64,000 nucleotides of DNA from Thermomonas sp. (lineage in GTDB: Bacteria > Pseudomonadota > Gammaproteobacteria > Xanthomonadales > Xanthomonadaceae): assembly GCA_047602125.1 (NCBI GenBank), contig JASGIB010000001.1, positions 911,284-975,283 on the forward strand, in the 5' to 3' direction. The notes beneath the pieces were generated by a model. The model saw nothing but the letters and a program-made list of their open reading frames with translations. It was not told the DNA's origin and searched no databases. Positions within the stretch are counted from its first letter, which is position 1; each line of letters starts with the position of its first letter. The position numbers and the translations under genes are program-made. This document shows, piece after piece, positions 27,666-47,570 of the stretch.

Positions 27666-28957
27666 GTTCCCTTCCTCAGGCCGAGGGTGGGCTCGACGCG
27701 CTGGCGCAGGCGGCTGGTGCCGCGCACCGGCGCGACGTCCGCCGGCGCGGGTTGCGCGGTCGCGGGCGTGCCCGCGGACGTGCGCTGCGCTTCGCCACGC
27801 AGCAGCGCGACCTGGCGTTGCGCGCGCTCGTATTCGTAGGACACGCGCAGCAGCAGGCCAAGCGCGGCGCAGGTCATCAGCACGCTCGAACCGCCCGAGG
27901 AAATCAGCGGCAGGGTCAGGCCCTTGGTCGGCAGCAGGCCGAAGTTCACGCCGATCGACACGAAGCTCTGCAGGCTCATCCACAGCGCGATGCCGAAGGC
28001 GATGTATCCGGCGAAATGCCGCCGCATCTCCACGCACTTGTAGCCGAGCCAGAACGCGCGGCCTGCGAGCAGCGCGTACATCGCCACGACCAGGCACACG
28101 CCGAAGAACCCGAGCTCCTCGGCGATCACCGCCATGATGAAGTCGGTGTGCGCCTCGGGCAGGTACGAGAGCTTCTGCACCGATCCGCCGAGGCCCACGC
28201 CCCAGAATTCGCCGCGGCCCACCGCCATCAGCGCATTAGTGAGCTGGTAGCCGCTGTCGAACGGATCCGACCACGGGTTCCAGAACGAGGTGAAGCGGCG
28301 GATGCGGTACGGCTCGGCGATCGCGATCGCGGCGAGCACCGGCAGACCGATCACCACCGGCGCCGCCATCTTCGGCAGGTGCACGCCGCCGAGGATCAGC
28401 ATGCCCGCGGTGATGGCCAGGATCAGCGACAGCGAACCGAAGTCCGGTTGCAGGATCAGCAACGCGACCAGCGCGGTCGCGACGCCGAGCGGCTTGAGCA
28501 TCGCGCCCCAGGTCGCGTTGACCTCGTCGCGGAAGCGCACCAGGTAGCTCGCCAGCCACACGATGTACATCACCTTCACCGCTTCCACCACCTGGAAGCG
28601 CAGCACTACCAGGTTGATCCAGCGGCGCGCGCCGTTGACGCGCACGCCCAGGCCCGGCACGAACACCAGCAGCAGCAGCGCGAAGCAGGCCAGCAGCAGC
28701 AACTGGTTGTACTTCTCGACCAGCTTGAGCTCGGTGCGCATCGCCACCACCGCCAGCGCCACGCCGCCGGCGAGGAACATCAGGTGCTTCTCGAGGAAGT
28801 AGAACGGGCCGACGTGCAGGCCCTCGCCGATCGCGATGGAACTGGAGGCGACCATCACCACGCCGAAGCATGCCAGCGCGATCGACACGCCCAGCAGCCA
28901 CGGGTCGAAGCGCCCTTCGATCGCGTCCAGCCTCGTCGCCTGGCGGATTTCTTCCAT
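27662..28957 (-). CDS. ftsW: Peptidoglycan polymerase FtsW
   Basis: [35 protein letters not shown]. Confidence 0.98.
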
Positions 28958-30039
28958 CAGCGCACCTTCAGCGTGGCGAGGCCGACGAGGACGAGCACCA
29001 CCGAGATGATCCAGAAGCGTACGATCACGCGCGGCTCGGGCCAGCCCTTGAGCTCGAAGTGGTGGTGGATCGGCGCCATCCGGAACACGCGCTTGCCGGT
29101 GAGCTTGAACGAGGCCACCTGGATCATCACCGACAGCGTTTCGATGACGAAGATGCCGCCCATGATCACCAGCACCAGTTCCTGGCGCACGATCACCGCG
29201 ACGGTTCCGAGCACCGCACCCAGCGCGAGCGCGCCGATGTCGCCCATGAACACCATCGCCGGATAGGTGTTGAACCAGAGGAAGCCGAGGCCGGCGCCGG
29301 CGATCGCGGCGCAGATCACCACCAGTTCGCCCGCGCCCGGCACCTGCGGGATTTGCAGGTACTTCGAGAACTCGGCGTGGCCCGAGGCGTAGGCGAAGAT
29401 GCCGAGCGCGCAGGCGACCAGCACCGCCGGCATGATCGCGAGGCCATCGAGGCCGTCGGTGAGGTTCACCGCGTTGGAGAAACCGACGATCCAGAAGTAG
29501 GCGATGGCGACGAAGCCGATGCCGGCCAGCGGCAGCGCGATCGACTTGAACAACGGCACGTAGAACGTGGTCGCGGCCGGCACGTCGGCGTAGGCGTAGA
29601 GGTAGATGCCGGCGGCGAGGCCGAGCAGCGACTGGCACAGGTACTTCCAGCGCGACTTCATCCCGTTCGGGTCGCGCCTGACGATCTTCACCCAGTCGTC
29701 GTACCACCCGATCGCGCCGAAGCCGATCATCACCGCGAGCACGACCCACACGTACTTGTTGCGCAGGTCGGCCCACAGCAGCACCGAGGCCAGCACCGTG
29801 AGCAGGATCAGCGCGCCGCCCATGGTCGGCGTGCCGGCCTTGGTGAAATGCGTCTGCGGGCCGTCGGTGCGGATCGGCTGGCCCTTGAATTCGGCCAGCT
29901 TGCGGATCATCGCCGGGCCCCACCACAACGACAGCGACAGCGCGGTGAGCGCGCTGAGGATGCCGCGGAAGGTGAGGTAGTTGAACAGCCCGAACAGGCG
30001 CTGCAACTGTTCCAGCCAACGGGTCAGTTCAAGCAGCAT
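28957..30039 (-). CDS. mraY: Phospho-N-acetylmuramoyl-pentapeptide transferase
   Basis: [35 protein letters not shown]. Confidence 0.99.
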
Positions 30040-31455
30040 GCTGCGATTCCCCCTCGAGCAGGGCCGCGACCACGCGGTCCATCGCGCTGCCGCGCGAGCC
30101 CTTCACCAGGATGCGCACGTCGCCGCGCATGTCGGCGTGCAGCGCATCGGCGAGCGCTTCGTGCGAATCGAAATGGCGCGCCCCCGCGCCGAAGCCTTCC
30201 ACCGTCGCCGCGCTGAGTTCGCCGAGCGCGTACAACCGCGCGATGCCCGCGGCCTTCGCGCGCCGGCCGGCGGCCGCGTGCAGGGCGCGCGCGTCGTCGC
30301 CGAGTTCGCGCATGTCGCCGAGCACCAGCCACGCTTCCCCGCCCGACGACGCGAGCGTGTCGATGGCGGCATCGAGCGAACCGGGATTGGCGTTGTAGCT
30401 GTCGTCGATCAGCAGCGCGCCGTTGCCGAGGCGGTGGCGCACGAGGCGACCGGCGACCGCGCGCGCTTCGCCGAGGCCGGCGCGGATCGCGTCCAGCGAT
30501 ACGCCGGCGCCCAGCGACATGGCCGCGGCGGCCAGCGCGTTGCGCATGTTGTGGCGTCCGGCGAGCGCGAGTTCGACCCGCACCTCGCCCTGCGGCGTGG
30601 CCAGGACGAAACGGGATCCGTCCGCGTTCGCGGCGATGTCGCGCGCGGTGACGTTGGCGCTGGCGTCGAGGCCGAAGCACAGCACGCGGCGATCCTTCGC
30701 GCGTTCGATGAAATACGGGGAAAACGCATCGTCGGCGTTGACCACCGCGACGCCGTCCGCCGGCAATGCGTCGTAGATCGCGGCCTTGGTGTCGGCGACG
30801 CCGAGCAGGCTGCCCATGCGCTCGAGGTGCGCGGGCGCGATGTTGTTGACCAGCGCGACGTTGGGTCGCGCGATGGCGGTGAGATAAGCGATGTCGCCGG
30901 GCTTGCCCGCGCCCATTTCGTACACTGCGAAATCGGCATCGTCCGGCGCGTCGATCACCGCCAGCGGCAGGCCGATCTCGTTGTTGCGGTTGCCGGGATT
31001 CGCGTAGGCCTTGCCTGCATGCGCGAGGATCGCCAGCAGCAGCGACTTCACGCTGGTCTTGCCGTTGCTGCCGGTGACCGCGAGCACCTTGCCGACGCGC
31101 CGTTCCTGCAAGGTGCGGGCGATATCGCCCAGCGCGCGTTCGGTGTCGGCGACGATGACCTGAGGAAGATCGATGTCGAGCGTGCGCGACACGAGGGCAG
31201 CGACCGGTGCCCTTGTGGGAGGGGCTTCAGTCCCGACACGTTTCTCCGCGGATTCCGTCGGGGCTGAAGCCCCTCCCACGAATGCCACAAGCGAATCGTG
31301 GCCGTCGAAGTTTTCGCCCTTCAGCGCGACGAACAGCACGCGGCGGCCGTCGGCGGCGAGCGTGCGGGTGTCGGTCGACACCGCGTCGACCTCGGCATCG
31401 TCGCCGTGGAGGCGACCGCCGCACCACTGCGCGATCCGTGCGAGCCGCAACGCCT

Positions 31456-31459
<4 letters not shown>
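30029..31459 (-). CDS. murF: UDP-MurNAc-tripeptide--D-Ala-D-Ala ligase, carrying an in-frame REP-derived insertion
   Basis: [33 protein letters not shown]. The insertion encodes ...[24 protein letters not shown]... Confidence 0.97.
31215..31279. repeat. GTGG/GTAG-type REP inverted doublet inside murF
   Basis: 23-nt arms 31215-31237 gtgggaggggcttcagtcccgac and 31257-31279 (revcomp gtgggaggggcttcagccccgac), one mismatch, 19-nt spacer. Confidence 0.9.
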
Positions 31460-32936
<1,477 letters not shown>

Positions 32937-32940
<4 letters not shown>

Positions 32941-47497: not shown

Positions 47498-47566
47498 GTA
47501 GGGTGGGCTTCAGCCCACCATGGCTCCATCAGGGTTTTCGTTGTGGTGGGCCAAGGCTCACCCTAC
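47498..47566. repeat. GTAG-type REP inverted doublet between glyA and nrdR
   Basis: 23-nt arms gtagggtgggcttcagcccacca (47498-47520) and 47544-47566 (revcomp gtagggtgagccttggcccacca). Confidence 0.88.
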
Positions 47567-47570
47567 GGCG

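Follow-up and report, generated by a model that had tools for sequence, protein, structure and literature searches.

Several species, among them members of Xanthomonas and Stenotrophomonas, have REPs with a GTAG head within known genes; over half of these intragenic REPs are dimers or groups that encode 20-30 residues, and the recB genes of two Xanthomonas species have an intragenic REP site in common (Di Nocera, De Gregorio and Rocco 2013, BMC Genomics 14:522, PMC3733652). In the REPIN-RAYT systems (Bertels and Rainey 2011, PMC3116915; later persistence work, bioRxiv 10.1101/2021.07.10.451892) two inverted REPs separated by a short spacer form one long hairpin, the RAYT gene is flanked by repeats, and there is a genome-specific master sequence. 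The Rickettsia palindromic elements, or RPEs (Ogata et al. 2000; reviewed in PMC10969869), are in-frame palindromic mobile DNA in housekeeping genes, predicted at fold-neutral places. They form unrelated families of about 100-150 bp in an alphaproteobacterial parasite, and the intragenic RPE-4 and RPE-6 of R. conorii were classed as CGTC-tagged REPs, a group for which no dedicated transposase was found (PMC3733652).

The insert in the murF gene analysed here resembles each of these systems in part. It has the GTAG/GTRG head, the short palindrome, the unpaired bases after the head and the 3-nt tail of the GTAG-1 and GTAG-2 types, and it shares with the REPIN-RAYT systems the two inverted REPs around a short spacer that make one long hairpin, the RAYT gene flanked by repeats and the genome-specific master sequence. 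Like the RPEs it is palindromic mobile DNA lying in frame in a housekeeping gene, and the Rickettsia precedent, which had been invoked in an earlier reading of this DNA made without database searches (the sequence-only reading), is an apt analogy as a way of working. Judged by length and head, however, the insert is not an RPE member: its head is GTRG whereas RPE-4 and RPE-6 are CGTC-tagged, its length (65-77 nt) is below that of the RPEs, and RPEs sit in dozens of genes per genome, whereas the 58 copies of the murF family account for one such case. REPINs are reportedly extragenic in the earlier as well as in the later (persistence) studies, whereas the murF REPIN is translated within an essential enzyme. 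Inversions of a hairpin loop flanked by short inverted repeats are known from plastid non-coding DNA; similarly, the 19-nt spacer of the murF element occurs in either orientation among close relatives, but in murF six codons of a protein loop are changed by the flip.

In-frame intragenic REP dimers are already known, and the present case is not a new kind of system. murF is absent from the target lists and supplements of PMC3733652, and our literature search returned no paper linking murF with REPs. In comparison with the intragenic GTAG REPs of that survey, the murF copy could be followed over two genera, and it adds arm and spacer rates and three murF sites; what is new is the time depth, the contrast of arms and spacer against the clock of the host gene, the spacer flip and the series of in-frame decay products.

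The window, i.e. the whole stretch of 64,000 nucleotides that was analysed, corresponds to C1:911284-975283 of the host genome (G000), which is a single contig of 2.69 Mb with 67.5% GC and is placed in the Lysobacteraceae by the named relatives of its MurF. The features are collected in Table 1. The start of murF overlaps the stop of murE in the sequence ATGA, and related contigs keep the order murE-murF-mraY with their Pfam labels, Glycos_transf_4 standing at the place of mraY. The murF product matched Mur_ligase_M (5.6e-44) and Mur_ligase_C (1e-16) in Pfam, its top PDB sequence match was E. coli MurF (1gg4, 1.6e-100), and its AlphaFold2 model superimposed on A. baumannii MurF (4qf5) with a TM of 0.89 and an rmsd of 2.1. 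Mur ligase middle and C-terminal domains, P-loop, MurF-type N-terminal domain and the placement between murE and mraY are all present. Every invariant column of a 48-sequence MurF alignment is kept, including the P-loop T129-G130-S131-x-G133-K134-T135, which agrees with the former statement that the catalytic motifs downstream of the insert are intact. A second intact murF, which would have left room for a non-functional copy here, was searched for in the genome and not found: the remaining matches are Mur-ligase paralogues of 30-33% identity, and the single murF is intact.

Table 1. Position of the murF insert, its parts, the neighbouring genes and the candidate transposase gene (window coordinates unless marked as genome)
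Feature	Position	Strand	Product, composition or reading	Basis
murF	30029..31459	minus	UDP-MurNAc-tripeptide--D-Ala-D-Ala ligase, 476 aa	ORF and translation
murE (dcw cluster, upstream of murF)	31456..32940	minus		ORF list
mraY (dcw cluster, downstream of murF)	28957..30039	minus		ORF list
Full REPIN	31209..31285	minus	77 nt: 6-nt flank, arm, 19-nt spacer, arm, 6-nt flank	flank consensus of the family
Arm 1 (gene orientation)	31257..31279	minus	GTGGGAGGGGCTTCAGCCCCGAC, read V61-G-G-A-S-A-P-T68	
Spacer, 19 nt	31238..31256	minus	gene strand GGAATCCGCGGAGAAACGT, read E69-S-A-E-K-R74; free to vary, invertible	
Arm 2 (gene orientation)	31215..31237	minus	GTCGGGACTGAAGCCCCTCCCAC, reverse-oriented REP with one G-to-A change, read V75-G-T-E-A-P-P-T82	
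Candidate RAYT (Y1, IS200-like transposase gene)	genome 1740303-1740917			PF01797, 35 bits against a cut-off of 23

The insert had been described as a 65-bp inverted doublet with 23-nt arms and one mismatch, lying in frame within murF. Arms, mismatch and core positions (31215-31279) hold, and the in-frame position is confirmed by the ORF and its translation, but the boundaries had to be moved: the murF copy carries the 6-nt flanks of its family on both sides (GCATTC...AAGGGC on the gene strand), so the element is 77 nt long. At the positions of arm 2 and arm 1 the window reads GTGGGAGGGGCTTCAGTCCCGAC and the reverse complement of GTGGGAGGGGCTTCAGCCCCGAC, respectively, which are 96% complementary. 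A search with the 23-mer allowing up to 3 mismatches found only these two sites in the window, and any match at all in 0/100 shuffles. The REPIN encodes A59 to A84 of MurF and, according to the alignment of relatives that had been proposed for fixing its boundaries, stands in place of 17 nt of the ancestral gene, a net gain of 60 nt and 20 residues; the replaced 17 nt were defined by codon-level comparison with the closest uninserted genes, those of G001/P0007 and, from another genus, G192. The earlier figure of 11 residues in this segment against 31 here was correct: of 30 comparison MurF genes drawn from the genus, the family and the order, 28 show a stretch of 11 residues from DGH[DE] to A[AL]LV (e.g. 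HVAAAAAAGVA).

The arms belong to a dispersed family with the pattern GTRGGAG - stem - loop - stem - CGAC, of which the host genome contains 58 well-formed copies, many of them inverted doublets. The stems are 5-7 bp and the loops 2-4 nt long, and the stem variants (CGGC/GCCG, GGGC/GCCC, GGCC/GGCC, CGAC/GTCG) arise by compensating changes, all of them being paired. The head tetranucleotide is GTGG in murF and GTRG over the 58 copies, hence GTAG-like, and the consensus of the 58 copies has a 6-nt 5' extension GC-YYYT (G, C, four pyrimidines), while 12 intergenic doublets from a second genus, g56, have GCYYTT...AARAGC around their arms. Inverted doublets with a short spacer, foldable as one hairpin, occur in murF and further in the host genome and in g56; the relatives G002 and G158 contain 41 and 70 pattern matches, respectively. 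The copy count rests on a head-plus-tail filter, used in place of a genome scan for GTRGG plus a hairpin, which was uninformative (1161 matches against 2083 in the reversed-sequence control). The candidate RAYT gene is flanked by three copies of the family, GTGGGAGCGACGGAAGTCGCGAC at 1740351(+), 1740929(-) and 1740980(+), with a stem variant other than that of the murF arms. Judged by its sequence, the murF insert can be assigned to a GTRG-headed family as a REP doublet (REPIN) with one locus of the cognate RAYT type, which substantiates the REP doublet of the sequence-only reading as a member of a dispersed, RAYT-associated family.

Two more Y1 genes were recognized in the genome, at C1:2639064-2639774 with inverted CTAACGGGGTCAGGT-type repeats on its flanks and at C1:1313688-1314218 with GTAGGATGGGTTGAGCGCAGCGATACCCATC-type repeats. 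Since the three Y1 genes have different flanking repeats, several pairs of repeat and transposase seem to exist in this genome.

A core shared with an intergenic REP at 47498 had also been reported. The 12-mer GGGCTTCAGCCC is indeed present there, but that copy belongs to another REP family (GTAGGGTGGGC...GCCCACC), therefore the shared 12-mer does not imply the same element. The locus at 47498-47567 of the window is itself an intergenic inverted doublet of this second family, with arms at 47498-47519 and 47546-47567 that read GTAGGGTGGGCTTCAGCCCACC and the reverse complement of GTAGGGTGAGCCTTGGCCCACC; in a raw scan the GTAGGG[TC]GGGC type had many copies elsewhere in the genome.

The genome-wide scan for further intragenic copies, suggested earlier, was carried out with an ORF and GC3 screen, a heuristic and not a gene annotation, by which 56 of the 58 copies lie outside genes and the murF pair are the sole intragenic ones. 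Two other intragenic candidates were rejected. The frame of 163 aa around 1655026-1655092 matched nothing in Pfam and appears to be non-coding, and the single REP at C1:1234835-1234859 stands upstream of the dtd start, thus not inside the gene. The latter copy, just before a D-tyrosyl-tRNA deacylase-like gene (MLALIQRVTEARV...) and within a longer open frame, could mislead gene callers.

The former reading took the insertion to be recent. The comparison with relatives did not support this, as the insert, at identical junctions, is also present in another species of the host genus (g1) and in six further sequences, over two genera. Identical junctions were found in eight distinct murF sequences from separate assemblies. 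In a scan of 401 genomes of the family, true matches were confined to two genomes of genus g1 (G000, G002) and two of genus g56 (G158, G221), both genera belonging to Lysobacteraceae; other species of g56 are uninserted, and the pattern-scan matches in G096, G192 and G213 were discarded as uninserted genes in which GGGCGGGG or GGGGCGGGG stands at the end by chance. Residues 40-105 of MurF, used in a word search, added six MurF clusters (P0002-P0007), of which P0002, P0003, P0004 and P0005 have the full element at the same junctions, P0006 has arm 1 alone after an in-frame loss of 48 nt (spacer and one arm), and P0007 lacks the element. The murF of G221 is identical to P0004, P0006 is closely related, and G158, G221 and P0006 represent genus g56. 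Outside the insert the inserted genes differ from the murF of the window at 13-26% of nucleotides. In G002, the other complete genome of genus g1 (MurF 85% identical), the left junction is the same and arm 1 is identical, and arm 2, which has the CGGC type of stem, is interrupted by 27 additional bases. An equally long but non-palindromic loop in relatives had been named as evidence against the insertion; the loop of G002 is longer still, but it holds the same element with a decayed arm 2.

On this ground it is likely that a REPIN of the RAYT-paired GTRG family entered murF long ago, 77 nt taking the place of 17 nt with the frame kept and 20 residues gained, and that the resulting disordered loop was tolerated and the insert has since decayed in relatives by frame-keeping events. 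The element would have become part of the gene in the region of the N-terminal domain where a helix comes after the conserved FDGH motif, at the C-terminal end of this helix. Its tolerance may be explained by read-through without a stop codon and by a disordered loop at the surface, after helix 53-61 and before strand 87-90, by which the catalytic parts would stay placed. As murF is an essential single-copy gene, the insert could be lost or eroded only through frame-preserving events, and the relatives suggest the modes of such a decay: loss of 48 nt comprising the spacer and an arm, addition of 27 nt in an arm, shrinkage of a doublet elsewhere in the gene to a palindrome of 26 nt, and inversion of the spacer. 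RAYT-mediated insertion alone would not predict the replacement of 17 nt, which counts against this reading.

The structural side of this reading rests on an AlphaFold2 model built from 48 sequences, which is confident (mean pLDDT 91.5) apart from the insert. The helix 53-61 is followed by coil at residues 62-86, with a pLDDT below 50 at 67-78, and by the strand 87-90; when MurF of E. coli is aligned, the insert corresponds to a gap after HDFA, the element having taken over the C-terminal end of the helix. The new loop that the sequence-only reading had placed in the MurF N-terminal domain thus appears in the model as a low-confidence coil, and the structure prediction it had recommended puts the insert between helix and strand, where a surface loop would probably be tolerated.

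How the element came to be in two genera can be read in two ways. In a maximum likelihood tree of MurF, with the insert columns dropped, the inserted genes form two clades, supported at 99/97 and 100/100, each of which lies nested among uninserted sisters (100/100 and 100/99), and a single change was allowed in 0/200 bootstrap trees. The tree consequently needs two changes, which is what two independent insertions at one spot would give, either because this site is a hot spot for this REPIN family or because it is one of very few places of the gene where an insert is tolerated. The family with its GGGG variant is present in both genera, and the C-terminal site of murF (see below) was also struck in separate lineages by different REP variants (P0006/G158 against P0007). 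The spacers of the two genera agree at 10-12 of 19 positions, which is not above unrelated intergenic copies (best 13/19), so they have no clear homology, and a sliding-window comparison of G000 with P0004 detected no raised identity beyond the element, which weakens the idea of a transferred patch. Against two hits stands that both genera have the same 17 nt replaced and that three codons beside the element have changed alike in both (CAY GTY GCC to TCG CTN GNG), these codons being outside the element as its ends are defined by the intergenic copies; furthermore the spacer is 19 nt long in both, whereas it ranges from about 8 to 36 nt in intergenic copies. The common 17 nt, spacer length and codon changes point to one origin, and we favour a single insertion followed by short-patch transfer between the genera over two independent hits, which we regard as possible but on balance improbable.

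The synonymous sites of murF can be compared directly with arms and spacer, thus the host gene serves as an internal clock for the element. Among six full-length copies, variable sites amount to 9/48 in the arms and 15/18 in the spacer, against 273/449 (61%) at third codon positions and 250/898 at first and second positions of murF (Fisher p for arms against third positions 2e-8, against spacer 2e-6). Even the third positions within the arms are variable in only about 3 of 16 cases, and arm codons such as GGA, GCT and TCA end in A or T, which is atypical where coding-frame third positions are about 80-90% GC. That the third positions of the arms are as fixed as the others, together with these AT-ending codons, argues for a constraint on DNA or RNA and not on the peptide. 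G000 and P0004 differ at 1/48 arm positions while their genes are only 74% identical, and arm 1 is identical in G000, G002, P0004, P0005, P0006 and G158. As the arms stayed near the REP master, synonymous positions included, while the spacer drifted, some factor other than the protein would constrain or restore them.

The spacer has, by comparison of its sequences, apparently flipped in orientation at least once. The spacer of P0005 agrees at 12-15 of 19 positions with those of its nearest relatives (clade A) taken in reverse complement (compared with random 19-mers, p is about 0.002 or less), and six loop residues have thereby been rewritten, ESAEKR-type against RIAADS-type. The corresponding flip between G158 and P0004 (13/19) is borderline, since unrelated intergenic copies also reach 13/19.

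For the stasis of the arms, hairpin-templated correction or conversion from other copies may be the cause, and we place it ahead of a selected function. It draws support from two observations: in P0002 both arm loops have changed together (CTTCAG to CTTTAG and CTGAAG to CTAAAG), and arm 2 of G002 has switched to the CGGC stem that dominates in its genus. In G000, however, the GGGGCTTCAGCCCC arm variant is almost absent outside murF and almost perfect within it, so conversion from the genome's own pool cannot explain the stasis there. RAYT might also target old REP sites within murF again and so renew the copies in place.

Alternatively, the hairpin might have been co-opted and its arms kept by selection, as an internal RNA structure of the dcw transcript or as a protein-bound DNA site; the RNA structure could block 3'-5' decay and so protect ftsI-murE, serve for processing, or slow the translation of murF. 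The earlier expectation of a strong hairpin in dcw mRNA is met by the predicted fold, with a 22-bp stem and -57.9 kcal/mol over 105 nt (z = -4.8). Co-option would agree with arms at least as conserved as the non-synonymous sites of the enzyme and with the low variability of their third positions, with the near-extinction of the G000 arm variant elsewhere in a genome whose murF keeps it almost perfect, and with P0004, where the arms at this site are perfect while the C-terminal insert of the same gene has lost all REP likeness. Uncompensated decay in P0003 (four unpaired changes in arm 1), in G002 with its split arm 2 and in P0006 with one arm lost speaks against a strict requirement for the hairpin, and the sister species and all other genera manage without the insert. 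Covariation is weak, with 2 pairs changed on both sides, a count matched by 45/500 shuffles, since the arms vary so little. No terminator-like site was detected in 30900-31600, the stem being followed by AAGGGCACCGG with no U tail, and in Rfam no family reached its gathering score, the matches below it being to generic microRNA hairpin models that scored 29 bits or less where the cut-offs are 52-168. Co-option in general is accordingly doubtful, and it is rather unlikely that nucleotide-level selection keeps the hairpin at this first site in particular, with a translated REPIN doubling as a working RNA or DNA element of the dcw cluster. If true, such selection would explain why the arms outlasted synonymous sites in two genera, and it would fit a short-patch crossing between them.

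The two remaining explanations have almost no chance of being correct. Misplacement of a REP doublet into murF during assembly is contradicted by a host genome in one contig, by the same insert and junction in independent genome and metagenome assemblies of relatives (JGI, ENA, NCBI) and by an open frame with net length differences that are always multiples of three; a native, lineage-specific loop that is REP-like by chance could appeal to the variable-length loops elsewhere in the MurF of this family, but is excluded by sequence identity to dispersed copies, the arms being letter for letter the master REP of genus g56 (about 70 pattern matches in G158), while the fit of the 6-nt flanks, the AT-ending codons in a GC-rich genome and the empty shuffles point the same way.

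An ancient insertion of a REPIN into murF, read as above, would provide a clean and datable REPIN inside an essential enzyme and would show how a protein loop can arise, be rewritten when the spacer inverts, and be shortened by in-frame deletions that the hairpin mediates. It bears on the question whether REPINs persist through usefulness to the cell. For annotation it is a warning, as REP masking may wrongly split or flag murF in these bacteria.

On sequence comparison murF appears to be a repeated target of palindromes in this group, at three sites. A second in-frame site of REP doublets is located near the MurF C-terminus, before the codons of VLVKGSRG (L114/P0006, L127/G158, L115/P0004, L119/P0007). 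P0006 has a perfect doublet there in the same frame, in G158 the doublet has collapsed to the 26-nt palindrome GTGGGAGGGGCTGAAGCCCCTCCCAC, P0004/G221 contain a scrambled version of the same length without any REP likeness, P0007 has a doublet of another stem variant, and short remnants are seen in G059, G192 and G117. At the third site, between TDTRTLA and VLFVALKG, a different palindrome, CCCTCCCCCGCAGGCGGGGGAGGG, lies in frame and reads NPPPQAGEGGER; it is carried by P0002 (L116, ~700-770), P0003 (L117) and G001 (L004, ~1440-1500). In G001, a metagenome-assembled genome of genus g1 (G001:C16, L004 ~1425-1500), the murF frame changes after MKPLRLAQLAQWC and about 20 codons are missing just before the NPPPQAGEGGER insert, which a deletion at the repeat could explain, or else an error of the assembly. 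At the first site G117 (L129) has kept the ancestral DHVA and is longer by seven residues, VFAKSSSTTSGAAI, which do not resemble a REP.
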